From a virus (lineage: Duplodnaviria > Heunggongvirae > Uroviricota > Caudoviricetes): a stretch of DNA of 19,623 bases. The position numbers were made by a program, and so were the translations under genes. Positions 1-18,387 of the stretch are shown piece after piece (the first letter of the stretch is position 1; each line of letters starts with the position of its first letter). The notes beneath the pieces were generated by a model. That model saw only the letters and a list, made by a program, of their open reading frames with translations, was not told the DNA's origin and made no database searches. Location of the stretch: the IMG/VR virus record IMGVR_UViG_2681813223_000024; one strand, given 5' to 3'.

Positions 1-300
1 CGTATCGTGTTTCACATCCTCAATCTCGCGTAACGCGGCACGACGACCAATTTTAAAATTGGTATCCAGCTGACCGATAATAGTTGCGCTAATCGCATTA
101 ATTTCCGAGGTAAACGCAGACAACGCAGGCTGATTACGTAAGACCTGTTCGATCTTCGCTTTCTCGGATGCCTCGCATTCACCATCTGCATAGGCCACCA
201 GGTATGCAGCGTTAATCACCGCCTGTGCCAGATCGCGTTTCTCAAACTTTTTAATTTCCGCTGCCGCTCTGCGGGTTTTCTTTTTGAAGATTCCAAACAT
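1..300 (-). CDS. TerB-like protein, 5' complete, C-terminus truncated by the window edge
   Basis: ATG at 300..298 preceded by AAGGAA about 8 nt upstream; open frame runs to position 1 giving MFGIFKKKTRRAAAEIKKFEKRDLAQAVINAAYLVAYADGECEASEKAKIEQVL... The VAYADG..E..E stretch resembles the TerB/DjlA-N family from memory. Not in the ORF track because no stop lies in the window. Confidence 0.5.
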   Translation of the reverse strand, partial: MFGIFKKKTRRAAAEIKKFEKRDLAQAVINAAYLVAYADGECEASEKAKIEQVLRNQPALSAFTSEINAISATIIGQLDTNFKIGRRAALREIEDVKHDT

Positions 301-435
301 CGTGACGTTCCTTTGGGTGGGTGAGCCAACGCCCGGGAGCGATCTGCCCACAGAGAAAGTCACACTGACCACTCCGTAAGCTCACCCCCGAAAGGCTCTG
401 TGGTTGATATGCGCCGGGCGTGGCGCAGATACAAA

Positions 436-500
436 NNNNNNNNNNNNNNNNNNNNNNNNNNNNNNNNNNNNNNNNNNNNNNNNNNNNNNNNNNNNNNNNN
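436..500. other. Run of 65 N (assembly gap or masked sequence)
   Basis: Continuous n characters from 436 to 500. Confidence 0.99.
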
Positions 501-527
501 TCGCTCTCACCACTGAGCTAAAGGGCC
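501..527 (-). tRNA. tRNA 5' portion only (acceptor 5' strand, D-arm and first nucleotides after it), truncated by the N gap; isotype undetermined, tRNA-Ile(CAU)-like by resemblance
   Basis: Minus strand reads GGCCCTTTAGCTCAGTGGTGAGAGCGA: 7-nt acceptor strand, U8, A9, D-stem GCTC/GAGC, D-loop with GG and A14/A21. Closely resembles the 5' end of enterobacterial tRNA-Ile2 as I recall it. The anticodon lies in the gap. Confidence 0.45.
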
Positions 528-563
528 GGGAGCAGAATAATAACGGTCCGTAATTAATTCCGC

Positions 564-590
564 AATAAAAAACCCGCTCAATGGCGGGTT
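564..590 (-). terminator. Rho-independent terminator candidate downstream of the Q-like gene (possible tR'-like)
   Basis: Minus strand reads AACCCGC-cattga-GCGGGTT followed by TTTTATT: 7-bp stem, 6-nt loop, U-rich tail. Lies about 80 nt downstream of the Q-like stop. Confidence 0.55.
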
Positions 591-666
591 CTGGTAAAGT
601 TCATGCGTTTGGTTCGCCTCGCGATACAGCTTTGCGAAGCTTACCGGAATTGAAGCAGTTTTTACG

Positions 667-1221
667 TCAAAAAGCAATAACTTTTTTCTCTATACCAAAA
701 GCCATAACCATTGGTTTGTACAAAATAAATTCTGCCACCTTTAGCCAATGCTCAATGCGTCTTTCACAGGTTCTTAAACTCCATTCCGGATGTGCATCAT
801 TCAGCAGTTCAGCCATTTTGCGCTTAGTCATCCCCCGCCCCACATAACGCTGACTCAGAACATTGAGCAGCCCGGGATAACCTGCCAGTACTTCACCAAT
901 AACCCTGTCGATTATTAACGCCTCTGAATCGGTACAATGCACCAGCCAGCTTTTTTGCTTGCCGTTGATCATATCCCGCAAAAAAGCCTCAAGTTTAGGT
1001 TTGTCCAGACCTGCTTTTTTCATCCTCCGGAGCGCCTCGTTAATTGCCGTTTTTGTCAGCTTTTTAGAGGTCAGCAACTGGTTGAACATATTTCCCGTCT
1101 TACCGCCGCCAATATACGACCAGCGCCCCCACATACGTAGTTTCCCCTGAATCCAGACACTTTCCAGCGTGGTGAGACGAAGGTGCTCTCCGCTTTTTCC
1201 TGTGTTCGTTGGGTAAATCAT
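667..1221 (-). CDS. Putative late-gene antiterminator Q-like protein (184 aa)
   Basis: Start chosen at the internal ATG (1221..1219), which overlaps the stop of the upstream gene as ATGA. Placed immediately after nin-type genes and before a terminator and tRNA, the usual Q position. Family assignment is from position and general resemblance, not a clear motif. Confidence 0.5.
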   Translation of the reverse strand: MIYPTNTGKSGEHLRLTTLESVWIQGKLRMWGRWSYIGGGKTGNMFNQLLTSKKLTKTAINEALRRMKKAGLDKPKLEAFLRDMINGKQKSWLVHCTDSEALIIDRVIGEVLAGYPGLLNVLSQRYVGRGMTKRKMAELLNDAHPEWSLRTCERRIEHWLKVAEFILYKPMVMAFGIEKKVIAF

Positions 1222-1508
1222 AAATAACCGTCCTTTCTCCAGATCTCTTGTGTGCGAAAAACACCTTCTGCATGCATCAGGCGCAATTCTTCTTTGGTGT
1301 AATCGCTGGTTTTTACTCTCCCGTCGATTAAATCGTGGCATGAGTTACAGGCAATCGCTGCCTGCATATCGTGTGGCTTTATCGCTGTTCCGCACGTTCC
1401 CGCCAGCCTGTAATGCGCCAGCACAGAGGTTTCGGGATTGTGATTGCAGTAGCCAGGGATTCTGATCTGGCATATCTGGCCTTTAGCCGCTTTACGTAAA
1501 TTCACCAT
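1218..1508 (-). CDS. DUF1364 / YbcO-like nin-region protein (putative nuclease), 96 aa
   Basis: Protein MVNLRKAAKGQICQIRIPGYCNHNPETSVLAHYRL..IACNSCHD aligns by eye with the recalled DLP12 YbcO pattern (RKAARG.ECQVRIPGVCNGNPETSVLAH...IAC..CHD). ATGA overlaps at both ends. Confidence 0.7.
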   Translation of the reverse strand: MVNLRKAAKGQICQIRIPGYCNHNPETSVLAHYRLAGTCGTAIKPHDMQAAIACNSCHDLIDGRVKTSDYTKEELRLMHAEGVFRTQEIWRKDGYL

Positions 1509-2107
1509 TACGCAAACTCCAGTAGTTGTGCGGCCACATTTTCAACTTCCTCCTGAGAGGAGAATTTACGGAACAGAATCCAGTTCCACAGCACATTCAG
1601 TACAGATTTATAAACCTGCTGAAACTCGACTTCGTCCATATTCGCAAAAGCGATGGATTTTGCCCGACGCCCACGGCTACCGTCCGGATAAATATGCTCG
1701 GTGTAAAATCCGGCCTGAATGGTTACCCACTCGCGGAAAGCCTCAAACGACTTTAGCAACGCCGTATCCCGGGTTCTACGAGTCGCAACGGTGTTAAGGT
1801 ATTGCTCTGCGGCATCACTCAGGGCTGGCGTGTGTTCCCGACCAACTGATTCGCACAGGTAATCAACGAAACCAGACAGCAGTTCTCGTTCGCGAGGCGT
1901 GATCGCCCCACCGACCGGAGTCCAGTAATCGAATCCCAGTTGCAGGAGTTTGAAAAAACGCTTGTGGAATGCGTAGTTACGCACACGCTTAAAATCTGCG
2001 TGTATCCACTCACCTATTTTGATTTGATGCAGAAAATCGCAACTCTCCGGCGTCGCCGGGAGAAGTAAACCAGAAGAAGTTTGTTTGACCAGTTGTATAT
2101 GCGCCAT
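1508..2107 (-). CDS. nin-region protein, probably DUF1367 family (199 aa)
   Basis: Intact 199-aa ORF with a purine-rich stretch upstream of the ATG; its stop overlaps the next gene start. Family name is from memory of lambdoid prophage neighbours of YbcO-like genes. Confidence 0.55.
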   Translation of the reverse strand: MAHIQLVKQTSSGLLLPATPESCDFLHQIKIGEWIHADFKRVRNYAFHKRFFKLLQLGFDYWTPVGGAITPRERELLSGFVDYLCESVGREHTPALSDAAEQYLNTVATRRTRDTALLKSFEAFREWVTIQAGFYTEHIYPDGSRGRRAKSIAFANMDEVEFQQVYKSVLNVLWNWILFRKFSSQEEVENVAAQLLEFA

Positions 2108-2526
2108 TTCTCAATCTCTCGATGGCGCAGTGCAGCAGATGCCAGTTGTTCAAGCTAGCACGCAAATTGTAAACCAGAATGCCAGGAAAAAACAAAACCC
2201 GCCGAAGCTGGTTGTGTGCGGTTGCGTTGAAGTCTCCTAGCCAAAGAGTAGCGGTGACCACTCCCCGCCGATAATCTTAGTTGTTTAATTTCGTAAGCTA
2301 ACTAGGCTAAAAGCTCTCTGTTGTCTGCCTGTTGTACAATTAACAAAATGAACAACGAACTAGATATACCAACGCCAGAATGGTGCAACAAATCCCAAAC
2401 AACACAGCAATGCAACAATAACATATGTTATTTTCCTCTCACGGGATTCAGTCCTGAATTCTCATAAAGCTAATCTTTTTTTAAAAACATACTGTTAGAT
2501 CACATGCACTTTCTTTCTTAACATCG

Positions 2527-2554
2527 TTGACTTCGCATGCGAAGCGTTTAAAAT
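2527..2554 (+). promoter_or_regulatory. Sigma70-like promoter candidate for the GHKL operon with a palindrome in the spacer
   Basis: TTGACT at 2527..2532, 16-nt spacer, TAAAAT at 2549..2554, about 50 nt upstream of the ATG at 2607. The spacer contains the perfect 14-bp palindrome CTTCGCATGCGAAG (2531..2544). An A/T tract TTTTTTTAAAAA lies upstream. Confidence 0.5.
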
Positions 2555-2606
2555 CAACAATTTGCACTTAAGGTATTTATTTTCCCAAACACATAGAGAG
2601 TAAATT

Positions 2607-3998
2607 ATGACTGAGAACACGACTCCAACAGCAGACTTTAGTCCTAGTAAAAGATTTTTTGTAAGTATGCTAACTCGAGATATCGACTTAAACGATGCCA
2701 TACTTGATCTGCTTGATAACTGCGTCGATGGGGCTTTACGTACAATAAAAGACACAAAAAAAACTTCAAAACCATATGAAGGATTTTATGCGAAACTTAC
2801 GATTAATAAAGATGTCTTTATTATAGAAGACAATTGCGGAGGTATCCCTAAAAGCTTCCGAGAATATGCTTTTAAAATGGGACGACCCCATCAAAAAGAA
2901 GAAGAAAATGAAGGCACCGTTGGCGTCTATGGTATTGGTATGAAAAGAGCCATTTTTAAAATGGGTAGAGATTGCTCAATACAATCGAATAATCCCGATG
3001 GCGCATTCACTGTAGATATAACACCTGATTGGATCGATGGTGATGGTTGGAAAATACCGATGCACGAGAGTGACTATGATAACAAAAATCCAACAGGCAC
3101 AACTATAGAGATAAAAAAACTCCATTCTAATGTGGCACAAAAATTTAATGAGAGCACATATCTTACTGATCTCTTTTTACAGATAAAACACTCATTGTCA
3201 TTTATTATTCAAAAAGGATTTAAAATAGAATTAAATGGAGTTGTTGTTGAACATAATCCGATTAACATCATAACTGATCATTCTAAAATAGAACCATACA
3301 TATATAAAGCTAAAATAGACGATGTTGATATCGATTTAGTTGTTGGCTTCTATAAAAATTTAGAAGATGACAATGATGATGTTTTAGAAAAAAGGAGTTC
3401 TGATGATGCTGGATGGACTGTCATTTGCAATGACCGCGTTGTTCTATATTGTGATAAGACACATCTCACAGGTTGGGGCTTTGCTAATGTACCAAGGTTT
3501 CATACCCAATTTATAGCAATTTCTGGGGTTGTTCGCTTTACCAGTAAAAACCCAGAAAAATTACCAATAACAACAACGAAACGAGGTGTCGATCTTAGTT
3601 CTACATTGTACAATGATGTACGAAATAAAATGATTGAAGGGATGATGCATTTTATTCGATTCACCAATCAGTGGAAAGGTGAGCATCTTGAAGAAGGGAA
3701 AAAATTACTTAAGTCAGCTCAGTCACATGAAGCTCAATCTTTATTTGAAATTACCCCACAATCAACTCCAGAAGATAAAAAAAATAACTGGTCCAACCCT
3801 AATAGAAACAAAAATGAGTGGCGATATACACCTAAGCTGCCTACCCCAGTAAAAAAAAGCTCTACTGTACGAATAATCTTCACCAGAGAGAAAGAAGATG
3901 TTAAAATTTTATCTAAATATTTCTTTGGACATGAAGATGCTAGCGCTTCTGATGTGGGGATGCAATGCTTTGATACGGTGATTGAAGAGGTGAAGTGA
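2607..3998 (+). CDS. GHKL / Bergerat-fold ATPase (MutL/MORC/Hsp90-type ATP-binding domain) with C-terminal extension, 463 aa
   Basis: N-terminal region shows the ordered GHKL motifs: DLLDNCVDGA (motif I, ExxxNxxDA type), IEDNCGGI (motif II, DxGxG type), GVYGIGMKRA (motif III, GxxGxG), PTGTTIEI (motif IV, TGT). Purine-rich SD (agagag) 6 nt before the ATG. Confidence 0.85.
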   Translation: MTENTTPTADFSPSKRFFVSMLTRDIDLNDAILDLLDNCVDGALRTIKDTKKTSKPYEGFYAKLTINKDVFIIEDNCGGIPKSFREYAFKMGRPHQKEEENEGTVGVYGIGMKRAIFKMGRDCSIQSNNPDGAFTVDITPDWIDGDGWKIPMHESDYDNKNPTGTTIEIKKLHSNVAQKFNESTYLTDLFLQIKHSLSFIIQKGFKIELNGVVVEHNPINIITDHSKIEPYIYKAKIDDVDIDLVVGFYKNLEDDNDDVLEKRSSDDAGWTVICNDRVVLYCDKTHLTGWGFANVPRFHTQFIAISGVVRFTSKNPEKLPITTTKRGVDLSSTLYNDVRNKMIEGMMHFIRFTNQWKGEHLEEGKKLLKSAQSHEAQSLFEITPQSTPEDKKNNWSNPNRNKNEWRYTPKLPTPVKKSSTVRIIFTREKEDVKILSKYFFGHEDASASDVGMQCFDTVIEEVK

Positions 3999-4987
3999 TG
4001 TCTGGACAATACATTCCCTATCACTTAAGGCATAATAAGTCTATTGATAGAGAGATTTTTCTCGAAAGCCTAAACCTCTTAAGCAAAAGACTAAATATTC
4101 AAGAATATACATATATAGGTTTTGGTGGTCCGATGCTTGAAGATTTTAGAATCATGCATAATCGTATCGCTCTTTCTGATATGATTTCTCTCGAAGAACA
4201 AGAGTCTACTCACATCAGACAAAAATATAATTTGCCTTATAATTGTATTGATTGTAAGCTAATATCAGCTCATGACTTTATTCTTGATTATAGTTTTTCT
4301 AAACCATCAATAACATGGTTAGACTATGCCTCCCCGAAAAAAATACAAACGGATCTAGATGATATACACTTACTAAGTACTAAAGTAAGCTCTTTTGATA
4401 TTTTGAAGGTCACCTTCCCCATAAATCCTAGTTCTTATTACCAACGTAGAGTTGGAGAAAGTTTAGATATTTTTAAAGAAGCTTTTATTAATTCATTAAA
4501 ATCATTGCTTGGGAAAAAGTATCTTGATTTTAATCTTCAGATATCAAATGCAGATCTTTCAGATCGTAAGATTAAAGCTCTTTTAATACGAATTATTACA
4601 AACGCTTTTAGATCAGCAATAGAACGTGGTCTTTCAGGACGTAAGGATAAGATTCAGTATTACCCATTATCCTTAAATCAATATAATGATGGCAGTCATA
4701 CCATGTTGACAATATCAGGTTTTTTCTCCTCAGAACAAGAATATATAGAGTTATCTAAGGCATGCGACCTTTCTAACTGGCAATTTTATTCAACAAATTG
4801 GGAAGACGTGCAAGAAATAGCAATACCAACACTAACAATTAAAGAAAAGATAAATTTAGATAGTAAACTGCCTGATAAAGAAGCATATCAGGCAGCCGCT
4901 GAAGAGTTCTCTTTAAACGAAAATGAACGGGATAACTATTATAAATACTATAGGTTATACCCTAACTTCCAAAGAATTATGGTTTAA
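3998..4987 (+). CDS. Uncharacterised protein, translationally coupled partner of the GHKL ATPase (329 aa)
   Basis: ATG at 3998 shares its A with the upstream TGA; AGGTGA lies 4 nt upstream. An in-frame GTG at 3995 is the alternative start used in the ORF track. Long uninterrupted ORF in the same AT-rich context. No catalytic motif recognisable by eye. Confidence 0.75.
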   Translation: MSGQYIPYHLRHNKSIDREIFLESLNLLSKRLNIQEYTYIGFGGPMLEDFRIMHNRIALSDMISLEEQESTHIRQKYNLPYNCIDCKLISAHDFILDYSFSKPSITWLDYASPKKIQTDLDDIHLLSTKVSSFDILKVTFPINPSSYYQRRVGESLDIFKEAFINSLKSLLGKKYLDFNLQISNADLSDRKIKALLIRIITNAFRSAIERGLSGRKDKIQYYPLSLNQYNDGSHTMLTISGFFSSEQEYIELSKACDLSNWQFYSTNWEDVQEIAIPTLTIKEKINLDSKLPDKEAYQAAAEEFSLNENERDNYYKYYRLYPNFQRIMV

Positions 4988-6106
4988 ATATTCGGGCTGT
5001 ACTCTTTTATTTAATAAATTGTACAGCCCCTTTAATATATATTCAGCAACTATTGGTGACACGCTATTTCCTATTTGTCTGAAACTATGCCATTTAGTTA
5101 CATGAAAGCGAAACCAATCAGGGAAGCCTTGTAATCTAGCAGCTTCTCTTGGTGTAATCACTCTTGGATGATAAGGGTGGATCGGCCTGACGGCTTGAAA
5201 GCTTCCTTTATCTCTAGCGGTTCCCGCCCTTAAAGTCGGGCAAAAACCATTTGGATCTAATCTTGTAGATCTTGAAATTTTATCAGTTTCCCCAAAAGAT
5301 AAGGAAGCATAACGCTCTTGGACGATTTTGCTATGTAATGTTCCGGTACATCCAGATATGATATTATTTTTTAACTTAGCGATCGATTCTGTATCACCAA
5401 CATTCCGAGGGATCTGCCCCCATAATTTTTCATAAAATCCCCCTTTTCGATCTTTTTTAATTGTTCGCCAACTCTCAGAGTCTGATTGCCAATTGGCATC
5501 GATAATATCTGGTAATCCATACAAAGCATCTTTTACAGTAACCGGATCAATCATTTTAGGCATAAATACTTCATCTGAAATATCAAGCTTCAATGATTTT
5601 TTTACACCGATAAAAAAATATCTAGTTCGAATAGTTGGAGCACCATAATCAGATGCTTTTACCTTGATGGGATCAAGAATATCATAATCACCGCTAACCA
5701 AATTAAATGCTTTATTTCTAATGCCAGAATATTTCTCTTGCATAATACCTGGAACATTTTCTGCCAAAAAGAATAATGGCTGTAATTCTGATACTAAACG
5801 GTAGAAATGCATGTAAAGCTGATTCCTGCTATCATCAGGATTCCCCTTGCCTATTGAACTAAATCCTTGGCACGGAGGACCGCCAATAATACCATCTATG
5901 GGCATATCGTTTTTAAAAAAACCCTTAATTATTTCTGCATTTAGTAAAGAAACATCTTCTTGGACGTGCAAACTTCTTGGAAAATTAATTGCGTGAGTAT
6001 TAATAGCATGTTGATCAATTTCAACTGCCATTTTAACATCAAATCCAGCACGTGCAGCACCAAGACTTAGACCTCCAACGCCAGAAAACAAATCTATTAC
6101 ATTCAT
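4955..6106 (-). CDS. DNA (cytosine-5)-methyltransferase (383 aa)
   Basis: Canonical C5-MTase motifs in order: DLFSGVGG (motif I, AdoMet binding), GGPPCQGFS (motif IV, catalytic Cys), ENV (motif VI), QIGNSV near the C-terminus, with a long variable region between. 3' end overlaps the partner gene convergently by 33 bp. Confidence 0.9.
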   Translation of the reverse strand: MNVIDLFSGVGGLSLGAARAGFDVKMAVEIDQHAINTHAINFPRSLHVQEDVSLLNAEIIKGFFKNDMPIDGIIGGPPCQGFSSIGKGNPDDSRNQLYMHFYRLVSELQPLFFLAENVPGIMQEKYSGIRNKAFNLVSGDYDILDPIKVKASDYGAPTIRTRYFFIGVKKSLKLDISDEVFMPKMIDPVTVKDALYGLPDIIDANWQSDSESWRTIKKDRKGGFYEKLWGQIPRNVGDTESIAKLKNNIISGCTGTLHSKIVQERYASLSFGETDKISRSTRLDPNGFCPTLRAGTARDKGSFQAVRPIHPYHPRVITPREAARLQGFPDWFRFHVTKWHSFRQIGNSVSPIVAEYILKGLYNLLNKRVQPEYLNHNSLEVRV

Positions 6107-6138
6107 ATAGTTGCAACGTCTCTTATTAGTTTCTATGT

Positions 6139-6147
6139 ATTATAACA
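6139..6147 (-). promoter_or_regulatory. Extended -10 promoter element candidate for the methyltransferase
   Basis: Minus strand reads TGTTATAAT (TGn + TATAAT) about 30 nt upstream of the MTase ATG. Confidence 0.4.
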
Positions 6148-6368
6148 CAACTGTTCTTGATGTTTTAACCCCATAAGATAACCTCATAAAGGCTATCCCT
6201 TGAAAATACCGGATCGCATAAATTTAATCTTTCAAAACTACTTGTCTATTAATCGAGCAATTTAAGGTTGTTTTAGTCATGTCGATACCGACATAGTTAA
6301 CTAAACCCATTTCATCGTCCAACAAATGGGGGTAATACACTTTGATTTATAGTCGGGTGGGTTTTTCT

Positions 6369-9841: not shown

Positions 9842-10630
9842 TTACCCCCTGAAGCCTGGCGGGATCGCACTGTCCGGAAACGAGACGGTGTTAATCTGTC
9901 GGAGCAACGTCTCTGGCCGAACACCTTTCGGCGCGAACAAGCCCTGGTATTCATTGGCGATGCTGTGTCGAATCACCTGCTCAGGTGAAAAACCCTGCTG
10001 GCGGAATTTTTCCAGCTCCCGTATCGCCCCGTTAGCGCCCTGCTCCGTTCGAATCGGTTTTCGCAATGCCTGCCTGAACTGAACCCACTCATGCCAGAGT
10101 GTTTCCGGCAACCAGTCAGGCAGCTCGATAGCCTCCGGTTCGAATTTTTTAGACGCTCGTTTTTGGCGAGGGGGATTTAGGGGGAGATAAGTATTTATAT
10201 CTTCCTCTTTCTCTTCCTCTGGTAACGCTTTTTGATCCGTTTTTGTAACGCTGGCAGCGTTACCTTTTCGTTTCAGTTCTCGTATTTTTGTTACTCTCTC
10301 GTTTGTAACCGCCCGTTTTTTAGAGCTTTTCCCGTTATGGCGCTCAAAGTTAGGAAGCGACAACACACCATTAGTTTCGACCAGCCATCCAACCTGAATT
10401 AACGCATCAGCAAAACCAGCCATAAAAGTGATGCGATCTATTGCACTTTTTGTAACGCCGCGAGCGTTACACTCTGCGTTACCGTCTATCATTTGTTGAT
10501 CCGCCCATGCCCAGAAGCGAATGACTTTCCCTAATGCGGCATCTGGATCAATATTCAGAATCTCAGCAAGCCTGAATATTTCCGGCTTATCCGGCGTAAT
10601 AACTTCGAGCTTTATCCAGTTTGAAGCCAT
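9842..10630 (-). CDS. ydaU: Replication initiation O-like protein (262 aa)
   Basis: Position between the YdaT gene and the DnaC-like gene; N-terminus MASNWIKLEVITPDKPEIFRLAEIL matches my recollection of Rac YdaU. Contains two of the three iteron-like palindromes. Confidence 0.7.
   Translation of the reverse strand: MASNWIKLEVITPDKPEIFRLAEILNIDPDAALGKVIRFWAWADQQMIDGNAECNARGVTKSAIDRITFMAGFADALIQVGWLVETNGVLSLPNFERHNGKSSKKRAVTNERVTKIRELKRKGNAASVTKTDQKALPEEEKEEDINTYLPLNPPRQKRASKKFEPEAIELPDWLPETLWHEWVQFRQALRKPIRTEQGANGAIRELEKFRQQGFSPEQVIRHSIANEYQGLFAPKGVRPETLLRQINTVSFPDSAIPPGFRG
10245..10263. repeat. Iteron-like palindrome copy A (GTAACGCT-GGC-AGCGTTAC)
   Basis: One of three copies of TGTAACGC-N-GCGTTAC(A) spaced about 200 bp apart; this copy is inside the ydaU-like coding region. 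Confidence 0.5.
10452..10470. repeat. Iteron-like palindrome copy B (GTAACGC-CGCGA-GCGTTAC)
   Basis: Second copy, inside the ydaU-like coding region. Confidence 0.5.
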
Positions 10631-10642
10631 TTGTTTTCACCT

Positions 10643-10663
10643 TGTAACGCTCGCAGCGTTACA
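10643..10663. repeat. Iteron-like palindrome copy C (TGTAACGCT-CGC-AGCGTTACA, perfect 9-bp arms)
   Basis: Third copy, in the ydaT/ydaU intergenic region. A second perfect inverted repeat TACCGAAC-aaaaca-GTTCGGTA follows at 10673..10694. Confidence 0.5.
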
Positions 10664-10707
10664 TTTAACTGATACCGAACAAAACAGTTCGGTACGATTA
10701 ATTTCAA

Positions 10708-11130
10708 TCAATGCACTACGACAGAATCGCTAGGAGAACCGCCGCCGCTGAAATGTGCTTTACGGTAAACGGCCTGGACTGCATCATCATGCGCATCAAT
10801 TGCCGTACTCAGTGCATCCTGTGCCGCCAGTAATGCACGGCGTTCCAGGGTATCGAAGATGCAGAGTCGGTGACGCAGCTCGCGAGGAAGAATTGCCAGA
10901 ACCGCAGGGATCAGTTTCTGAATTTTTTCCCTTTGCGCATTCGTTTCACCTTTCAACCAACGATGATAGATATTCTGCTGATTGTTCCAGTCCTTGCCTG
11001 GTACCAGGGGCAATTCGCCGCCCCCCTGGCGCAGATATTCTTCAGTAATTGCGTTAGCGACCCACGCCTGCCCTTTTTCGGCTGCCAGGGCTAACAACAC
11101 TGATTCGATGTGCTCATGCTTGATTTTCAT
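10708..11130 (-). CDS. ydaT: YdaT-like protein of the cro-ydaT early-right operon (140 aa)
   Basis: Protein MKIKHEHIESVLLALAAEKGQAWVANAITEEYLRQGG... matches my recollection of Rac YdaT; its start overlaps the Cro-like stop as ATGA. Confidence 0.75.
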   Translation of the reverse strand: MKIKHEHIESVLLALAAEKGQAWVANAITEEYLRQGGGELPLVPGKDWNNQQNIYHRWLKGETNAQREKIQKLIPAVLAILPRELRHRLCIFDTLERRALLAAQDALSTAIDAHDDAVQAVYRKAHFSGGGSPSDSVVVH

Positions 11131-11381
11131 GAATCAACTCCCATCAGCTTTTTCGTAGTAGTTTTATTTCTGCCAATAGTTAAAATTGCATCGGCAGAAA
11201 ATAATCCGTTTGATGCATGAGCGATTTTTTCAGCGTAATTTGTTTCGCCGGTATATTCTGTGCGAGGCAATTTACCGTTATCCATCCATTTGTAGATTGC
11301 TCTTTGGCTGACACCACAAACGTCGGCCACAACAGAAACGCGAACAGTTTTGATTACATCTTCAAGTGTTTTCTGGTTCAT
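11127..11381 (-). CDS. Cro/YdaS-like HTH regulator (84 aa)
   Basis: Internal start at MNQKTLEDV (ATG 11381) with GAGGG 5-6 nt upstream; HTH-like segment VSVVADVCGVSQRAIYKWM; divergent from the CI-like gene. Confidence 0.65.
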   Translation of the reverse strand: MNQKTLEDVIKTVRVSVVADVCGVSQRAIYKWMDNGKLPRTEYTGETNYAEKIAHASNGLFSADAILTIGRNKTTTKKLMGVDS

Positions 11382-11460
11382 ATCACCCTCACAATGTGAA
11401 CTTTGAGTACATGCTATAACAGAACTGACAGTACATTCAAGAGCGAATATCATTGAACTT
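11382..11460. promoter_or_regulatory. Divergent immunity-region control region (OR-like) between the cro-like and CI-like genes
   Basis: 79-bp intergenic region with two AGTACAT motifs (11406..11412 and 11430..11437) and two TGAACTT motifs (11398..11404, 11454..11460). The CI-like ATG has no SD, consistent with a leaderless transcript. Confidence 0.45.
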
Positions 11461-11880
11461 ATGGTTCATGAAGATAAAGCGCGTAAAGAGTTCGCCAGTA
11501 GGCTTGCGCTAGCCTGTGAAAACGCTGGTTATGAACAACATGGAAGGCAGGCAGAAATTGCCCGTCGAATGAAATTAACACCAAAAGCGGTTAGCAAATG
11601 GTTTAATGGTGAAACAATTCCTCGCCGAGAGAAATTAAGGGAATTAGCAACACTCATTGGAACAACACCAACCTATCTTTTGGGAGAGGATACAGAAGAA
11701 AGTGGACAGATACGTTTCTATCAGGAGTTAAATCCAAGACAAAAAATCATCATTGACCTTCTGGACGAGCTCCCTGACAGTGAGACAGATGAACTTTTAA
11801 AAACTCTTGAGGAGAAAAAACAGAAGTACAATGCAATTTACGAAGAGTTAGCACGAAAGAAAAAACAAAAAGCCTCTTAA
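11461..11880 (+). CDS. XRE-family HTH repressor, CI/RacR-like (139 aa)
   Basis: HTH segment RQAEIARRMKLTPKAVSKWFNGETIP; divergent from the Cro-like gene and co-oriented with the early-left operon. Confidence 0.7.
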   Translation: MVHEDKARKEFASRLALACENAGYEQHGRQAEIARRMKLTPKAVSKWFNGETIPRREKLRELATLIGTTPTYLLGEDTEESGQIRFYQELNPRQKIIIDLLDELPDSETDELLKTLEEKKQKYNAIYEELARKKKQKAS

Positions 11881-11957
11881 ACCAGCATAAATCCGGTAGC
11901 GTCCCCCTCCGGGTTTGTGCTTCACTTTATCCCGTCTCATTTTTTTATACATAAAAT

Positions 11958-11999
11958 GTACTTAAAGTACTTTACAATGATGAACACAAAGTACATTAT
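11958..11999 (+). promoter_or_regulatory. OL-like operator/promoter region downstream of the CI-like gene
   Basis: Contains GTACTT, the perfect palindrome AAAGTACTTT (11964..11973) and AAAGTACATT (11988..11997), sharing the AGTACAT core seen in the OR-like region. TTTACA at 11971..11976 with a weak -10 about 17 nt downstream. Confidence 0.35.
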
Positions 12000-12167
12000 A
12001 TACCTACCAACCCACCCCGCCCCACAGAACGCCGGGCAATACTTCGAGTTACCAGGCAGTGGTCAGGGGTTAAGTAGCCAGCCCGAGGCGTATGAACATG
12101 ACGGCGGGATTCAAATTTTGCAGTGCAGCAGTTAGTTCCGCCACCCGGCGTTAAGGGGATAGATAAG

Positions 12168-12302
12168 ATGGTGCATTACGAAGTAGTTCAGTATTTGATG
12201 GATTGTTGCGGTATCACTTACAACCAGGCTGTGCAGGCTTTACGCAGCAACGACTGGGATCTCTGGCAGGCAGAAGTCGCTATACGTAGCAACAAGATGT
12301 GA
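12168..12302 (+). CDS. ydaG: Small Rac-type protein (44 aa, MVHYEVVQYLMDCCGITYNQAVQALRSNDWDLWQAEVAIRSNKM)
   Basis: ATG preceded by AAGGGGA; sequence matches my recollection of Rac YdaG; below the ORF-track cutoff. Confidence 0.55.
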   Translation: MVHYEVVQYLMDCCGITYNQAVQALRSNDWDLWQAEVAIRSNKM

Positions 12303-12312
12303 GATTCGCAAA

Positions 12313-12468
12313 ATGCAAAAAATCGACCTCGGCAACAACGAATCCCTGGTGTGCGGCGTGTTCCCCAACCAGGATGGAACGTTCACTGCCATGACGTATA
12401 CCAAAAGCAAAACATTTAAAACCGAAACTGGTGCGCGCCGATGGTTGGAGAAGCACACAGTAAGCTAA
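12313..12468 (+). CDS. ydaF: Small Rac-type protein (51 aa, MQKIDLGNNESLVCGVFPNQDGTFTAMTYTKSKTFKTETGARRWLEKHTVS)
   Basis: ATG 10 nt after the ydaG stop; 3' end overlaps the sieB 3' end by 4 nt on the opposite strand; recalled as Rac YdaF. Confidence 0.55.
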   Translation: MQKIDLGNNESLVCGVFPNQDGTFTAMTYTKSKTFKTETGARRWLEKHTVS

Positions 12469-12953
12469 CGATTAAAACGTCTACTCCTGCTGTTCCAGAA
12501 TAACTTCATAAAATGGGAGTATTTTTCGGTGACGAGATAATAAGAACAGTTTGCGCTATCACTCTGATGTTGAATGATGCCCTTCCGTTCTAATTTTTTC
12601 ATAACCGGGTTACGGCAAGGAGAAGTGATAATAAGATTTCCTGTTTTAAGGAAATCTTTAAATACAGCGATTTCTTTCTCAGATAAACGAAGCAATACTC
12701 GTTGCTCTGGTAGTAATGAATAATGCTTTTGAATATGTGCTCGCAATCTTGAGAAGGAAATGGCGACCACGAAAGAAAAGGCAAAAACGATAATCTGAAA
12801 GAGCCAAGGTATTTCAGTATAAGCATTGAATGCGACAGTAAACTCTTTCGGTATCAGCCAGAGAGTGAGACCAAAAATGATAATCGTATACATAAGTCTT
12901 TCGAGTGGCTCGTTAGCAAAAAGTTTCAACAATGGAGTAAATACATCCAACAT
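12465..12953 (-). CDS. sieB: Superinfection exclusion protein B (162 aa)
   Basis: Start at MLDVFTPLLKLFANEPLERLMYTIIIFGLTLWLIP (ATG 12953) with GAGAG 8 nt upstream; hydrophobic N-terminal half; opposite orientation to the early-left operon, as in lambda and Rac. Confidence 0.8.
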   Translation of the reverse strand: MLDVFTPLLKLFANEPLERLMYTIIIFGLTLWLIPKEFTVAFNAYTEIPWLFQIIVFAFSFVVAISFSRLRAHIQKHYSLLPEQRVLLRLSEKEIAVFKDFLKTGNLIITSPCRNPVMKKLERKGIIQHQSDSANCSYYLVTEKYSHFMKLFWNSRSRRFNR

Positions 12954-13171
12954 ATCAATAACTCTCAACTGTAAGGGTATTGAAATGTTAACACAAGCTC
13001 TCGCTGTAGGGGTATAGCCGAGACCACCGAAGCCCGGAGGTGGTGAAATAAAACCGGGCACAACACGAAGGCGCATTTCCGATATCCATAAAGAGTCGGT
13101 CTTGTCTGTTAAATTTAAATGGTGGGAGTGCGCCTCCGGTTGTAAATAACGACATTGCTGTGTGTAGTCCT

Positions 13172-13220
13172 GGCGGCATCAGTTTTTTTCTTGAAGTTCG
13201 GCTGATGTCCGCCCTTTTTA
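13172..13220 (+). terminator. Terminator-like hairpin between sieB and kilR (tL-like candidate)
   Basis: GGCGGCATCAG, about 19-nt loop, CTGATGTCCGCC, then CTTTTTA. Stem of 11 bp with one bulge; the large loop lowers confidence. Confidence 0.3.
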
Positions 13221-13394
13221 AAGTGAATTTTGTGATGCGATGAATGCGGCTAAGCGCACGTGGCACAGTTAAAAGTCATGTTAGTCCTTATTGGTTTGGG
13301 TGGGAAAGCCGACTGTAATTGTTAACTGGTTGCAGTCACCTGGAGGCACCAGGCACCGCATCAACAAAGTTCATTTGTAAAAATGGAGATAATT

Positions 13395-13616
13395 ATGATT
13401 GCACATCACTTCGGAACTGATGAAATACCACGTCAGTGTGTGACTCCTGGCGATTATGTTCTTCATGAAGGCCGGACATATATTGCCTCGGCAAACAATA
13501 TTAAAAAGCGAAAACTATATATTCGTAACCTGACCACAAAAACATGCATTACTGACCGCATGATTAAAGTCTTCCTCGGTCGTGATGGTTTACCTGTAAA
13601 GGCGGAGTCATGGTGA
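13395..13616 (+). CDS. kilR: Rac-type killing protein KilR (FtsZ-directed division inhibitor in K-12), 73 aa
   Basis: Start at [32 protein letters not shown] with GGAG 6 nt upstream; sequence matches recalled KilR. Confidence 0.8.
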
Positions 13617-13786
13617 TGACTAAGAAAATAAAATGTGCTTACCACCTTTGCAAAAAAGACGTTGAAGAAAGCAAAGCTATTGAAAGAATGCTTCACTTCA
13701 TGCACGGGATTTTATCAAAAGACGAACCGAGAAAATATTGCAGTGAAGCTTGTGCCGAAAAAGACCAGATGGCACATGAACTTTAA
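13616..13786 (+). CDS. ydaE: Small four-cysteine zinc-ribbon-like protein (56 aa)
   Basis: ATG overlaps the kilR stop as ATGA; [14 protein letters not shown]...YCSEACAEK has two Cys pairs; recalled as Rac YdaE; below the ORF-track cutoff. Confidence 0.6.
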   Translation: MTKKIKCAYHLCKKDVEESKAIERMLHFMHGILSKDEPRKYCSEACAEKDQMAHEL

Positions 13787-13860
13787 TTAATTGACTATTC
13801 GAAACTGAATTTATGCCAGAAATGGCAGGTATTCGCTCAACCTTAATTAAGGAGAAAAAC

Positions 13861-14136
13861 ATGATTACCAATTATGAAGCCACTGTTGTAACTACCGATG
13901 ACATTGTTCACGAGGTGAATCTGGAAGGAAAGCGCATTGGCTACGTAATTAAAACAGAAAATAAAGAAACCCCATTCACTGTGGTTGATATCGATGGTCC
14001 ATCAGGCAACGTAAAAACACTTGATGAAGGTGTCAAAAAAATGTGCCTGGTGCATATCGGAAAGAATCTGCCCACAGAAAAAAAAGCCGAATTTCTGGCA
14101 ACTCTAATTGCAATGAAATTAAAAGGTGAAATCTGA
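13861..14136 (+). CDS. racC: RacC protein (91 aa)
   Basis: Start at MITNYEATVVTTDD with AGGAG 7 nt upstream; matches recalled RacC. Confidence 0.8.
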   Translation: MITNYEATVVTTDDIVHEVNLEGKRIGYVIKTENKETPFTVVDIDGPSGNVKTLDEGVKKMCLVHIGKNLPTEKKAEFLATLIAMKLKGEI

Positions 14137-14237
14137 AAGAAATAGCCTGCGTATGGCGCAGGCTATGAACAGTGTGTATCCGGCAAGATCATTCACTGAA
14201 CAAAACGAATTTTAATCTGAGTTGAGGTTAAAAAACA

Positions 14238-16838
14238 ATGAGCACAAAACCACTCTTCCTGTTACGGAAAGCGAAAAAATCATCCGGTGAACCTGACGTC
14301 GTCCTGTGGGCAAGCAACGATTTTGAATCGACCTGTGCCACTCTGGACTACCTGATCGTTAAGTCAGGTAAAAAACTGAGCAGCTATTTTAAAGCTGTTG
14401 CCACGAATTTTCCTGTCGTTAATGACCTGCCCGCTGAAGGTGAGATCGATTTTACCTGGAGTGAACGCTATCAACTCAGCAAAGACTCCATGACATGGGA
14501 ACTAAAACCGGGAGCAGCACCAGACAACGCTCACTATCAAGGCAATACCAACGTCAACGGCGAAGACATGACTGAGATTGAGGAGAATATGCTACTCCCA
14601 ATTTCTGGCCAGGAACTGCCCATTCGTTGGCTTGCTCAACACGGCAGCGAAAAACCGGTAACGCACGTTTCACGCGACGGACTCCAGGCATTACACATTG
14701 CTCGGGCTGAAGAACTACCGGCTGTTACTGCCCTGGCTGTTTCCCACAAAACCAGCCTGCTCGACCCGCTGGAAATTCGCGAACTCCACAAACTGGTTCG
14801 TGACACTGACAAAGTTTTCCCTAATCCTGGTAATTCAAACCTGGGACTGATAACTGCTTTTTTCGAAGCATACCTGAACGCTGACTACACCGATCGAGGA
14901 CTGCTGACAAAAGAGTGGATGAAGGGTAATCGTGTTTCACACATCACTCGCACGGCTTCCGGTGCTAATGCTGGCGGCGGAAACCTCACCGATCGCGGCG
15001 AAGGTTTCGTACACGATCTGACGTCACTGGCGCGCGACGTAGCCACTGGCGTACTGGCCCGTTCAATGGATCTGGACATCTATAACCTTCATCCGGCACA
15101 CGCTAAACGCATTGAGGAAATTATCGCTGAAAATAAACCGCCCTTTTCTGTTTTCCGCGACAAATTCATCACCATGCCTGGCGGGCTGGATTATTCCCGC
15201 GCCATCGTGGTTGCGTCCGTAAAAGAAGCACCAATTGGGATCGAGGTCATCCCCGCGCACGTCACTGAATATCTGAACAAAGTACTGACTGAAACCGATC
15301 ATGCCAACCCTGATCCGGAAATCGTGGATATTGCCTGCGGTCGCTCCTCTGCCCCGATGCCGCAGCGAGTAACAGAAGAAGGAAAACAGGATGATGAAGA
15401 AAAACCGCAACCATCTGGAACAACGGCAGTTGAACAGGGAGAGGCTGAAACAATGGAACCGGACGCAACTGAACATCATCAGGACACGCAGCCGCTGGAT
15501 GCTCAGTCACAGGTAAATTCTGTTGATGCGAAATATCAGGAACTGCGGGCAGAACTCCATGAAGCCCGGAAAAACATTCCATCAAAAAATCCTGTCGATG
15601 CCGATAAATTGCTTGCTGCATCACGTGGTGAATTTGTTGACGGAATTAGCGACCCGAACGATCCGAAATGGGTAAAGGGGATCCAGACTCGCGATTGTGT
15701 GTACCAGAACCAGCCAGAAACGGAAAAAACCAGCCCGGATATGAATCAACCTGAGCCAGTAGTGCAACAGGAACCGGAAATAGCCTGCAATGCCTGCGGC
15801 CAGACTGGCGGGGATAACTGCCCTGACTGTGGTGCGGTGATGGGCGACGCAACATACCAGGAAACATTCGATGAAGAGAGTCAGGTTGAAGCTAAGGAAA
15901 ATGATCCGGAGGAAATGGAAGGCGCTGAACATCCGCACAATGAGAATGCTGGCAGCGATCCGCATCGCGATTGCAGTGATGAAACTGGCGAAGTCGCAGA
16001 TCCCGTAATCGTAGAAGACATAGAGCCAGGTATTTATTACGGAATTTCGAATGAGAATTACCACGCGGGTCCCGGTGTCAGTAAGTCTCAGCTCGATGAC
16101 ATTGCTGATACTCCGGCACTGTATTTGTGGCGTAAAAATGCCCCCGTGGACACCACAAAGACAAAAACGCTCGATTTAGGAACCGCTTTCCACTGCCGGG
16201 TACTTGAGCCGGAAGAATTCAGTAACCGCTTTATCGTAGCACCTGAATTTAACCGCCGGACAAACTCCGGAAAAGAAGAAGAGAAAGCGTTTCTGAGGGA
16301 ATGCGCAAGCACAGGAAAAACGGTTATCACTGCCGAAGAAGGCCGGAAAATTGAACTCATGTATCAGAGCGTTATGGCTTTGCCGCTGGGGCAATGGCTT
16401 GTTGAAAGCGCCGGACACGCTGAATCATCAATTTACTGGGAAGATCCTGAAACAGCAATTTTGTGTCGGTGCCGTCCGGACAAAATTATCCCTGAATTTC
16501 ACTGGATCATGGACGTGAAAACTACGGCGGATATTCAACGATTCAAAACCGCTTATTACGACTACCGCTATCACGTTCAGGATGCATTCTACAGTGACGG
16601 TTATGAAGCACAGTTTGGAGTGCAGCCAACTTTCGTTTTTCTGGTTGCCAGCACAACTATTGAATGCGGACGTTATCCGGTTGAAATTTTCATGATGGGC
16701 GAAGAAGCAAAACTGGCAGGTCAGCTGGAATATCACCGCAATCTGCGAACCCTGGCTGACTGCCTCAATACCGATGAATGGCCAGCTATTAAGACGTTAT
16801 CACTGCCCCGCTGGGCTAAGGAATATGCAAATGACTAA
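14238..16838 (+). CDS. recE: Exodeoxyribonuclease VIII, full-length (866 aa)
   Basis: 866-aa ORF with an acidic low-complexity middle region and C-terminal nuclease domain, followed by an overlapping recT; matches recalled K-12 RecE length and N-terminus. Confidence 0.93.
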
Positions 16839-17640
16839 GCAACCACCAATCGCAAAAGCCGATCTGCAAAAAACTCAGGGAAACCGTGCACCAGCAGCAA
16901 TTAAAAATAACGACGTGATTAGTTTTATTAACCAGCCATCAATGAAAGAGCAACTGGCAGCAGCTCTTCCACGCCATATGACGGCTGAACGTATGATCCG
17001 TATCGCCACCACAGAAATTCGTAAAGTTCCGGCGTTAGGAAACTGTGACACTATGAGTTTTGTCAGTGCAATCGTACAGTGTTCACAGCTCGGACTTGAG
17101 CCCGGTAGCGCCCTCGGTCATGCATATTTACTGCCTTTTGGTAATAAAAACGAAAAGAGCGGTAAAAAAAACGTTCAGCTAATCATTGGCTATCGAGGCA
17201 TGATTGATCTGGCTCGCCGTTCAGGTCAAATCGCCAGCTTGTCAGCCCGTGTTGTCCGTGAAGGTGACGAGTTTAATTTCGAATTTGGCCTTGATGAAAA
17301 GTTAATACACCGCCCAGGAGAAAACGAAGATGCCCCTGTTACCCACGTCTATGCTGTCGCAAGACTGAAAGACGGAGGTACTCAGTTTGAAGTTATGACG
17401 CGCAAACAGATTGAGCTGGTGCGCAGCCAGAGTAAAGCTGGTAATAACGGGCCGTGGGTAACTCACTGGGAAGAAATGGCAAAGAAAACGGCTATTCGTC
17501 GCCTGTTCAAATATCTGCCCGTATCAATTGAGATCCAGCGTGCAGTATCAATGGATGAAAAGGAACCACTGACAATCGATCCTGCAGATTCCTCTGTATT
17601 AACCGGGGAATACAGTGTAATCGATAATTCAGAGGAATAA
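16831..17640 (+). CDS. recT: RecT single-strand annealing recombinase (269 aa)
   Basis: Start at [42 protein letters not shown] overlapping the recE stop by 8 nt; an ATG 6 nt upstream (MQMTKQ) is an alternative start. Confidence 0.93.
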
Positions 17641-17695
17641 TTCAGCCTGGCGGTGTAATGCACCGCCAACTTGAAATATTTTTATGAGAAAAATT

Positions 17696-17845
17696 ATGAG
17701 ATATGACAATGTTAAACCATGTCCATTTTGTGGTTGTCCATCAGTAACGGTGAAAGCCATTTCAGGATATTACCGAGCGAAGTGTAACGGATGCGAATCC
17801 CGAACCGGTTATGGTGGAAGTGAAAAAGAAGCACTCGAACGATGA
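17696..17845 (+). CDS. ralR: RalR/Lar-type restriction-alleviation toxin, apparently truncated to 49 aa by an in-frame TGA
   Basis: MRYDNVKPCPFCGCPSVTVKAISGYYRAKCNGCESRTGYGGSEKEALER then TGA at 17843..17845. The same frame continues NKRTTGNNNGGVHV to a TAA at 17888..17890, which matches the recalled 64-aa RalR C-terminus where Trp (TGG) stands in place of this stop. Confidence 0.6.
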   Translation: MRYDNVKPCPFCGCPSVTVKAISGYYRAKCNGCESRTGYGGSEKEALER

Positions 17846-17882
17846 AATAAACGAACCACTGGAAATAATAATGGAGGTGTTC

Positions 17883-18071
17883 ATGTATAAAATTACCGCC
17901 ACTATTGAAAAGGAAGGTGGCACTCCTACTAACTGGACAAGATATTCAAAATCTAAACTAACGAAATCAGAATGCGAAAAAATGCTCTCAGGTAAAAAAG
18001 AAGCAGGCGTTTCCAGAGAGCAGAAAGTAAAACTGATAAATTTTAATTGCGAGAAACTTCAGTCCTCGTGA
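17883..18071 (+). CDS. ydaC: Small Rac-type protein YdaC-like (62 aa)
   Basis: Start at MYKITATIEKEGG with GGAGGT 6 nt upstream; the ATG overlaps the position of the ancestral ralR stop. Confidence 0.65.
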   Translation: MYKITATIEKEGGTPTNWTRYSKSKLTKSECEKMLSGKKEAGVSREQKVKLINFNCEKLQSS

Positions 18072-18103
18072 ATTGCATTGTATTCAAATTAAAACTTCAT
18101 AGC

Positions 18104-18119
18104 TGATTATTAATAATCA
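18104..18119. repeat. Perfect 16-bp A/T-rich palindrome upstream of xis (TGATTATTAATAATCA)
   Basis: Self-complementary 16-mer about 50 nt upstream of the xis start. Confidence 0.35.
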
Positions 18120-18170
18120 ACATCGGGCGTCAATTTAAGTCTAACATTGGCGCCTGCCAGAGGTGATGCG

Positions 18171-18386
18171 ATGGCACAAGTAATCTTTAATGAAGAGTGG
18201 ATGGTTGAATACGGCCTGATGCTTCGCACTGGTCTGGGGGCCAGACAAATTGAAGCATACCGCCAGAACTGTTGGGTGGAAGGCTTCCACTTCAAACGAG
18301 TATCTCCTTTAGGGAAGCCAGACAGTAAGCGAGGGATTATCTGGTATAACTATCCAAAGATAAATCAGTTTATCAAAGACTCATGA
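18171..18386 (+). CDS. xisR: Excisionase-like protein (71 aa)
   Basis: Start at [35 protein letters not shown] with AGGTGA upstream; immediately before int; matches recalled Rac YdaQ/XisR. Confidence 0.8.
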
Positions 18387-18387
18387 T

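Follow-up and report, generated by a model that had tools for sequence, protein, structure and literature searches.

In 2008, comparative genomics predicted that prokaryotic ATPases of the MORC and paraMORC kind act in restriction-modification, coupling ATP-driven manipulation of DNA to its methylation status, and placed these ATPases at the source of the eukaryotic MORC proteins (Iyer, Abhiman and Aravind 2008, PMC2292703, main text). According to the same main text, a minority of the MORC neighbourhoods contain methylases and no helicase. In the open-access literature we found no experimental work on prokaryotic MORC/paraMORC ATPases except for a GHKL-Shedu fusion, VcSduA (GHKL-Shedu/paraMORC3; PMC12137116), a bacterial GHKL ATPase that is experimentally required for anti-phage defence. 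Here, we describe a three-gene cassette at positions 2607–6106 of the IMG/VR record IMGVR_UViG_2681813223_000024, a stretch of 19,623 nucleotides (nt) from a virus of the Caudoviricetes (the whole stretch is called the window below). The cassette encodes a MORC-like GHKL ATPase of 463 amino acids (aa; 2607..3998, plus strand), a Methyltransf_35 (PF20553) protein of 329 aa (3998..4987, plus strand; the partner) and a C5 DNA cytosine methyltransferase of 383 aa (4955..6106, minus strand; the methylase).

An earlier note on this DNA, made from the sequence alone, had singled out the three genes as a candidate undescribed defence module. We find that the trio is a real and ancient unit that is linked in both directions. 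On balance, we favour reading it as a defence cassette of the MORC/paraMORC kind that resembles restriction, is based on methylation and depends on ATP, and the effector step of which is possibly non-nucleolytic.

The three genes form one conserved unit

Relatives of the ATPase were sought in one genome per species, which gave at least 585 species with a confirmed relative. The neighbourhoods of 80 retained loci were compared, with a C5 methylase called at E < 1e-40. These loci span Cyanobacteria, Chloroflexota, Acidobacteriota, Planctomycetota, Latescibacterota, Poribacteria, Nitrospirota, Firmicutes, several proteobacterial classes and Bacteroidota, and one comes from a methanogenic archaeon. 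A Methyltransf_35 gene directly follows the ATPase gene in 76 of the 80 loci and a C5 methylase is present in 72 (~90%); a vsr gene was found in 33 loci, always alongside the methylase. The order methylase–ATPase–partner accounts for 53 of the 80 loci and the order of the window, ATPase–partner with a convergent methylase, for 11; the pair of ATPase and partner only was seen in 8 loci, ATPase–methylase without the partner in 4, and other arrangements in 4.

All three genes were present on 69 of 73 viral contigs, down to ~30% ATPase identity, and the C5 methylase in 72 of these 73 viral loci. In a set of 133 non-redundant loci the partner adjoins the ATPase in 126. Of these partner genes, 98% overlap the ATPase stop codon or begin no more than 10 nt away, with a 4-nt ATGA overlap in 79. 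The linkage also holds from the other side: in a viral survey anchored on the methylase, the pair was present in 47 of 47 loci whose methylase shares 59% identity or more with that of the window, and absent from 12 of 12 loci at 46% methylase identity or less. Pairwise identities of ATPase and partner are correlated with a rho of 0.78, those of ATPase and methylase with a rho of 0.44, and in all three proteins the catalytic motifs show 94–100% conservation. Both the association of ATPase and methylase, which had been read from the window, and the conserved co-occurrence of all three genes were found across phyla, and the linkage holds with the ATPase or the methylase as the anchor. Prophage slots do collect unrelated morons, and three unrelated cargo genes might have come to share one island by chance; this explanation is contradicted by the survey, with its trio in many phyla, overlapping genes and two-way linkage, and its probability is practically negligible.

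A MORC-like GHKL ATPase

The first protein consists of a GHKL domain (residues ~1–200), an S5/transducer domain (~205–330) and a helical C-terminal region (~333–463). It matches PF13589 (E = 2.9e-9), and its AlphaFold2 model (predicted local distance difference test, pLDDT, 82) has its best Foldseek matches in Hsp90/TRAP1, SMCHD1, MORC2/3 and topoisomerase IV ParE, over the GHKL and middle/transducer regions. Conservation was counted over 108 non-redundant relatives: D34, N38, D41, G42, D75, G78, G79, G106, G109, G111 and T323-T324-K325 are 100% conserved. GHKL motifs I–IV are all present, with G164-T165 conserved to 98–100% save for T165 at 79%, and K325 of the TTK loop stands at the position of the transducer lysine. 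The motif DLLDNCVDGA, which the earlier note had pointed out, is present, while its residue numbering was off by one (D34-L-L-D37-N38-C-V-D41-G42); N38 is the Mg-binding Asn and D34 lies at the position of the catalytic Glu. The assignment to MutL/MORC-type GHKL ATPases is thus borne out by both the Foldseek comparison of the model (GHKL plus transducer) and the conserved motifs.

The nearly invariant stretch G269-W-T-V-I-C-N-D-R277-V-V fits exactly the pattern GhXhhpXXRhl, a short and degenerate motif that is given as the MORC signature in the S5 domain (Iyer et al. 2008, PMC2292703, main text). Searched against all PDB sequences, the profile of the ATPase family reached MORC3 and MORC4 alone, and these marginally (E = 0.03–0.17), and a Pfam scan of 34 family members returned HATPase families only, with no match to a MORC S5-domain model. 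Therefore, we call the protein MORC-like, not a proven MORC. A PDB search with single sequences returned no match for the ATPase or the Methyltransf_35 protein. The S5-domain block of residues 269–301 holds N275, R277, W290, H299 and Q301 at 100% and D283 at 98%, and its N-D-R and H are retained even in a longer variant of the ATPase (see below); the S5 domains of other GHKL ATPases typically conserve a single basic residue (Iyer et al. 2008, PMC2292703, main text). As judged from this conservation, N275-D-R277 ... H299-x-Q301 could be an interface to the partner or to DNA, or a cryptic catalytic site.

MutL family models of Pfam and NCBIfam did not match the ATPase, nor did they detect a MutL C-terminal dimerisation/endonuclease domain. 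This bears on the idea of a repair accessory, in which the ATPase would be a MutL analogue that aids Vsr-type very-short-patch repair of T:G mismatches arising from 5-methylcytosine deamination. E. coli MutL stimulates Vsr (cited in the main text of Iyer et al. 2008, PMC2292703), and the vsr gene of the 33 loci is often co-operonic with the pair: it lies inside the operon in many loci, and in Methylomonas and Leptospira the order is Vsr–ATPase–partner with a convergent methylase. However, Vsr is missing from most loci, this window included, a repair function would leave Methyltransf_35 without a role, and the ATPase is better conserved and has a closer link with the partner than with Vsr. Together with the lack of a MutL family match, this makes a role in repair very improbable.

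Longer relatives of the ATPase (573–608 aa) were found in three distant viral loci (L157:5977–7722, L158:5965–7686 and L160:5989–7749) and in Serratia (L163:12672–14498, minus strand). They carry an extra conserved helical C-terminal domain of ~170 aa with motifs such as HEAK..D and [LM]NxxxH, for which a comparison with Pfam gave chance-level hits only, and they adjoin the methylase without a Methyltransf_35 gene of their own. The long variant resembles paraMORC1, which is described as having intact motifs and a distinct C-terminal extension and as co-occurring with a MORC gene (Iyer et al. 2008, PMC2292703, main text). In Serratia, a single C5 methylase has ATPase genes of both kinds at its sides: the short one and Methyltransf_35 share one strand, and the 608-aa long one forms an operon with the methylase on the other. 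In view of this arrangement, the fused C-terminal domain and the partner protein may be alternative output modules.

A partner protein with a methyltransferase fold

The second protein had been listed as an unknown partner, a description that does not stand. It matches PF20553 (Methyltransf_35) end to end (E = 2e-89; 300 bits against a cut-off of 27; profile positions 1–308 of 309), a family of 2212 clusters at 50% identity that is mentioned in no searchable open-access paper. Its Pfam name is "putative O-methyltransferase", and the PGAP label is O-methyltransferase as well. The model (pLDDT 88.5) has the seven-stranded class I fold of S-adenosylmethionine (SAM)-dependent methyltransferases, to which a helical insertion and a helical extension at the C-terminus are added. 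The nearest folds are rRNA/tRNA base methyltransferases (RsmD-like, Trm1, RlmI, Erm, KsgA), and N- and C-methylating RNA enzymes are as close as COMT; the similarity is generic, with 5–14% identity and about half of the protein aligned. For the "O-" of the family name, we found no experimental basis. Equivalents of G43 (glycine loop), E66 (ribose-binding acid) and D109 (acid after strand 4) are 94–100% conserved, and so is a set of mostly basic and aromatic residues (R11, K14, R18, R74, Y39, W107, Y229, D231, E283). By these signature residues, the partner probably binds SAM.

An intact SAM-binding signature on a fold like that of nucleic-acid methyltransferases would also suit a modification module without restriction, in which both methyltransferases modify DNA, on two strands or positions or in a second step, and the ATPase serves as a loader or processivity factor; on a phage, such a module would give protection from host restriction or set an epigenetic state. 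No nuclease is present, viral contigs and prophages often carry the trio, and the cyanobacterial pairs without a neighbouring C5 methylase show no sign of toxicity. A dedicated invariant GHKL ATPase, however, is not normally needed by plain modification enzymes. The trio is also chromosomal in many phyla and was found within a type I restriction-modification locus, and its prophage slot is used in other strains by a classical restriction-modification system and by toxins (both described below). The strict two-way linkage to one methylase clade better fits a protective partnership than two independent modifiers, and we judge pure modification to be unlikely.

The same fold similarities raise the question of an abortive-infection or addiction module, with Methyltransf_35 as a toxin that methylates rRNA, tRNA or protein once an infection or a lost methylase is detected by the ATPase, so that growth of the infected cell stops. 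The nearest folds would fit such targets, no nuclease would be needed, and in Serratia marcescens (L163/L164, ~10001–15662) the trio lies among toxin-antitoxin genes, its neighbours being ParE, CbtA/CbeA, CdiI and HNH genes. Against this, the fold similarity is as generic as stated above, the constant DNA methylase partner with Vsr indicates that DNA is the substrate being read, and the pair stands alone in cyanobacteria. Such a toxin is quite improbable, somewhat less so than a repair accessory.

The C5 DNA methyltransferase

The third protein matches PF00145 (E = 2.6e-61), the PADLOC model MTase_II (E = 2e-98) and also the DruM and DrmMII models. Its match to PDB entry 3G7U is almost exact (E = 1.3e-254 over residues 1–367); we take this entry to be a structural-genomics deposit of the methylase of prophage CP-933R. 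Motifs I, IV (PCQ), VI (ENV), VIII, IX and X are present and 95–100% conserved in the clade of methylases linked to the pair, with P78-C79-Q80, E116-N-V and R160/R162 at 100%. The best PDB match besides 3G7U is M.HaeIII, which covers residues 1–200 only and lies outside the target-recognition region. The linked methylases form one clade, and their target-recognition domains can be aligned in every pair, with a median identity of 42% vs 55% for the catalytic core. The alignable domains suggest that the specificities of the linked methylases are related, which may explain how the conserved pair of ATPase and partner works with these methylases.

A swappable cargo slot in a Rac-type prophage

E. 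coli O157:H7 EDL933 carries at ttcA a lambdoid prophage of the Rac type, CP-933R, to which the window is 100% identical from ~1000 onward. The segment 2200–6400 occurs at 100% identity in many Shiga-toxin-producing E. coli strains, and at least 80% of it is present in 172 of 5426 complete E. coli genomes, chromosomal in every case. The three genes share one AT-rich cargo island of ~4.1 kb (2231..6358), as had been proposed: the open reading frames are all intact, the GC content is 0.31–0.39 between ~2250 and ~6250 against 0.45–0.55 in the flanks, and the homology to other Rac-like prophages of E. coli ends at ~2230 and restarts at ~6338–6359. The replication genes flank the island on one side and the DUF1367/DUF1364/DUF1133 genes on the other, so that its position is nin-like. 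The methylase gene is co-directional with the phage early operon, which the plus-strand pair opposes.

In other E. coli strains the slot at ~2231–6358 holds hokD, or a KilA-N gene with DUF1971. One strain (NZ_CP145714) carries in the same place a C5 methylase with a restriction endonuclease of the NgoMIV family, a classical type II pair. As the flanking homology resumes around other cargo in other strains, the island is exchangeable, and the slot is a variable hotspot that swaps toxin and restriction-type genes in and out of the prophage. The nin-region accessory hotspot of the earlier note is thereby borne out by both the position and the alternative cargo.

The trio was found in other mobile or defence-type contexts as well. 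In locus L165 (4408–16599), methylase, ATPase and partner interrupt a type I restriction-modification locus: they separate hsdS from hsdR, hsdM and hsdS are parted by a Y1 transposase-like gene, and a HigB toxin is encoded close by. The filamentous Pseudomonas Pf phage PfAC20 (L167, PP058144; 13.6 kb) carries the trio at 280–3711 as accessory cargo by the repressor and excisionase genes, and has a second, short cytosine methyltransferase gene at 5438–6082. The paper on PfAC20, using PADLOC, scored just an "incomplete" restriction-modification system, with the methylase alone. Current annotation tools report an "orphan" or "incomplete" methylase at such places, and many of these methylases may therefore belong to complete systems.

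Gene layout and candidate regulatory sites

For the Methyltransf_35 gene, PGAP places the start at the ATG at 3998 (329 aa), and a GTG at 3995 (330 aa) is an alternative. The ATG shares one base with the TGA of the upstream ATPase gene and is preceded by a GAGG 8 nt ahead. At its 3′ end the gene overlaps that of the convergent C5 methylase by 33 bp (4955..4987), as confirmed by the coordinates and stop codons.

A consensus scan for promoters returned a site for the plus-strand pair at 2527..2554 (plus strand; TTGACT-16 nt-TAAAAT, 10/12 matches), 52 nt ahead of the ATPase ATG. It resembles a sigma-70 promoter, and both hexamers are kept in L101, the ATPase of which is 85% identical. Promoter-like sites are no more frequent in the region than in shuffled sequence (19 vs 16.5), and therefore a role of this site as the promoter of the pair is plausible only. 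Of the earlier proposal that the pair runs against the phage operon from its own promoter, the orientation was confirmed, and the promoter is a plausible candidate. Upstream of the methylase, the scan gave a promoter-like site at 6139..6168 (minus strand; TTAAAA-18 nt-TG-TATAAT, 10/12 with an extended -10 TG); the methylase could also be transcribed by read-through from the phage early operon.

The spacer that separates the two hexamers (-35-like and -10-like) ahead of the ATPase gene contains a perfect 14-bp palindrome, CTTCGCATGCGAAG, at positions 2530–2543. This palindrome was considered as an operator and rejected, as it is absent from L101, the nearest diverged relative, where the hexamers are kept. 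By this comparison, CTTCGCATGCGAAG is probably not a conserved operator. In cassettes of the Enterobacter type (L070, L105, L109 and L111), a recurring element, TTTTTTTGCATGCATTTTGATGCAAAATCA, which includes the palindrome TGCATTTTGATGCA, precedes the start of the ATPase gene by ~100–120 nt; possible explanations are a regulatory site and the boundary of the inserted unit.

Elsewhere in the window, positions 11461–19623 show a standard Rac-type prophage with a repressor/Cro-like gene pair, sieB, kilR, recE (14238–16838), recT, ralR and xisR, and an integrase gene that runs off the window end next to ttcA. At the other end, positions 436–500 are a masked run of 65 N. The stretch 1–~600 differs from EDL933, where genes for tRNA-Arg and tRNA-Ile are annotated at the matching place left of the island; ARAGORN and Rfam detected no RNA gene in this stretch, which includes the N run.

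A restriction-like reading and what weighs against it

The gene content, the association with Vsr, the operon forms and the genomic contexts together lead us to the reading as a restriction-modification cassette. According to this reading, the C5 methyltransferase would mark the DNA of host and prophage at its recognition sites, and ATPase and Methyltransf_35, being translationally coupled, would act as one complex that uses ATP, and probably SAM, against DNA without the 5-methylcytosine mark. A role of this sort was put forward for MORC and paraMORC ATPases by Iyer et al. (2008, PMC2292703). Since the conserved unit contains neither a nuclease nor a helicase, the final step is probably other than classical cleavage. 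In the form of effector that we judge most likely, Methyltransf_35 or the C5 methylase would read unmodified sites and the ATPase dimer would close as an ATP-driven clamp on the DNA, blocking replication or expression. Alternatively, Methyltransf_35 might add a harmful methyl group to foreign DNA. A prophage-borne cassette of this kind would protect the lysogen.

Taken one step further, the trio would represent a nuclease-free, minimal form of restriction: the MORC-type ATPase would clamp or compact DNA without 5-methylcytosine, with Methyltransf_35 as a SAM-dependent reader or a damaging methylator, and the whole would be the prokaryotic equivalent, and perhaps the forerunner, of the link between MORC proteins and cytosine methylation in eukaryotes, in reversed form, i.e., silencing the unmethylated DNA. 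We put this forward as a tentative and rather doubtful extension.

Several observations weigh against a restriction-like cassette. Neither plus-strand protein matches a nuclease in Pfam, NCBIfam or PADLOC, and a search of the pair for a hidden nuclease with PD-(D/E)xK, HNH, PLD or MutL-type motifs found none. The folds agree with this result, the partner being a methyltransferase throughout and the ATPase GHKL plus S5, neither of them a nuclease; the C-terminus of the ATPase shows no conserved acidic or histidine cluster among relatives. No other gene family recurs near the trio that could supply a nuclease or helicase: the most frequent one reaches 7 of 80 loci, and the leading neighbour groups appear to be housekeeping genes shared by related genomes. 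The eight loci with the pair and no adjacent methylase comprise seven from cyanobacteria and one cut at a contig edge, and if the pair were the toxic half of a restriction system, its occurrence without a methylase would be surprising, save where the methylase gene lies at another place in the genome. In four other cyanobacterial loci (L038, L050, L075 and L077), which share neighbour genes, the ATPase is directly followed by a longer C5 methylase (424–466 aa) and Methyltransf_35 is absent. A broken partner beside an intact methylase, the typical decay of restriction genes, was seen in only two loci. Finally, the open-access literature yielded no paper naming the trio and no phage-challenge, toxicity or methylome study of it.

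As for known families, PADLOC-DB 2.0.0 (2023) contains none that matches the ATPase or the partner at E <= 0.1, and only the methylase was matched, which agrees with the earlier statement that the pair corresponds to no named defence system. NCBIfam gave a weak, sub-threshold match to MzaB (12 bits vs a cut-off of 850); the PHROG families of the two plus-strand proteins (20521 and 19983) are annotated "unknown function", and their public names are generic. The word "defence" of the earlier note is a reading of the genomic context.

Among pathogenic E. coli, the cassette is found in the strains that have been studied most, and a crystal structure matching its methylase has been solved. Were the restriction-like reading true with an effector other than DNA cleavage, it would reveal a new way of acting on unmodified DNA, and with the trio the reading of DNA methylation by MORC ATPases could be studied in a tractable model.

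Comparison with known systems

The systems predicted by Iyer et al. (2008, PMC2292703) are the closest in kind. Like the trio, they combine a GHKL plus S5 ATPase that has intact motifs with a neighbouring cytosine methylase and often Vsr, and they are laterally mobile; the fit to this MORC-like restriction-modification association, which had been suggested from the window, is upheld by the motifs and by the cytosine methylase and Vsr in the neighbourhood. As described in the main text of that paper, the predictions centre on helicase and nuclease partners, whereas in the cassette described here neither recurs or is fused. A methyltransferase-fold partner like that of the trio is unmentioned in the main text, and the paper may depict the gene as an unnamed box. 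The HEF_HK/Response_reg_2 elements (Bellieny-Rabelo et al. 2021, PMC8011034) likewise consist of a protein with an N-terminal HATPase_c_3 domain and a small partner gene, strongly linked to a C5 methylase and to type II restriction-modification contexts. The proteins are different, however: Pfam detected no HEF_HK, second HATPase_c or Response_reg_2 domain here, and the partner of the trio is Methyltransf_35. The DefensePredictor paper mentions only an unvalidated HATPase + REC system.

BREX and DISARM share with the trio the principle that methylation marks self. These systems need ATPases and a SAM-using site reader of methyltransferase fold, with no obligatory nuclease known, and they are much larger and built from unrelated proteins (PglX, PglZ, BrxC and BrxL; DrmA and DrmB). 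PADLOC gave no BREX or DISARM match for the trio beyond generic C5 methylase models. BREX is a precedent for a SAM-dependent methyltransferase that reads foreign DNA without a known nuclease, as in the reader form of the effector. VcSduA (PMC12137116) differs from the trio in being a single protein with a fused DUF4263 PD-(D/E)xK nuclease and in lacking a methylase; the DUF4263 domain was not detected in our ATPase by Pfam or PADLOC.

CglI and NgoAVII combine, as proposed for the trio, a C5 methylase with a two-protein, ATP-hydrolysing restriction complex. Their ATPase is superfamily 2 helicase-like and their R subunit a PLD-family nuclease, neither of which is part of the trio.

MutL, with MutH or Vsr, is likewise a GHKL plus transducer ATPase in methylation-directed DNA transactions; in contrast to it, our ATPase has no MutL model match or MutL C-terminal domain, and Vsr is optional in the trio loci. 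A classical type II system shares with the trio the methylase with intact motifs, and not the recognisable restriction endonuclease. Altogether, a GHKL ATPase of the MORC radiation beside a cytosine methylase was already predicted by comparative genomics in 2008, so that the claim of novelty does not extend to a GHKL ATPase beside a DNA methylase in general. It does hold for this trio, which, with its methyltransferase-fold partner and neither nuclease nor helicase, we found undescribed in open-access papers, PADLOC 2.0.0 and NCBIfam. With three genes, no helicase and no nuclease, it is the smallest MORC-methylase version seen here, and, being compact, widespread and present in a model pathogen, it could open the function of prokaryotic MORC-type ATPases to direct testing.

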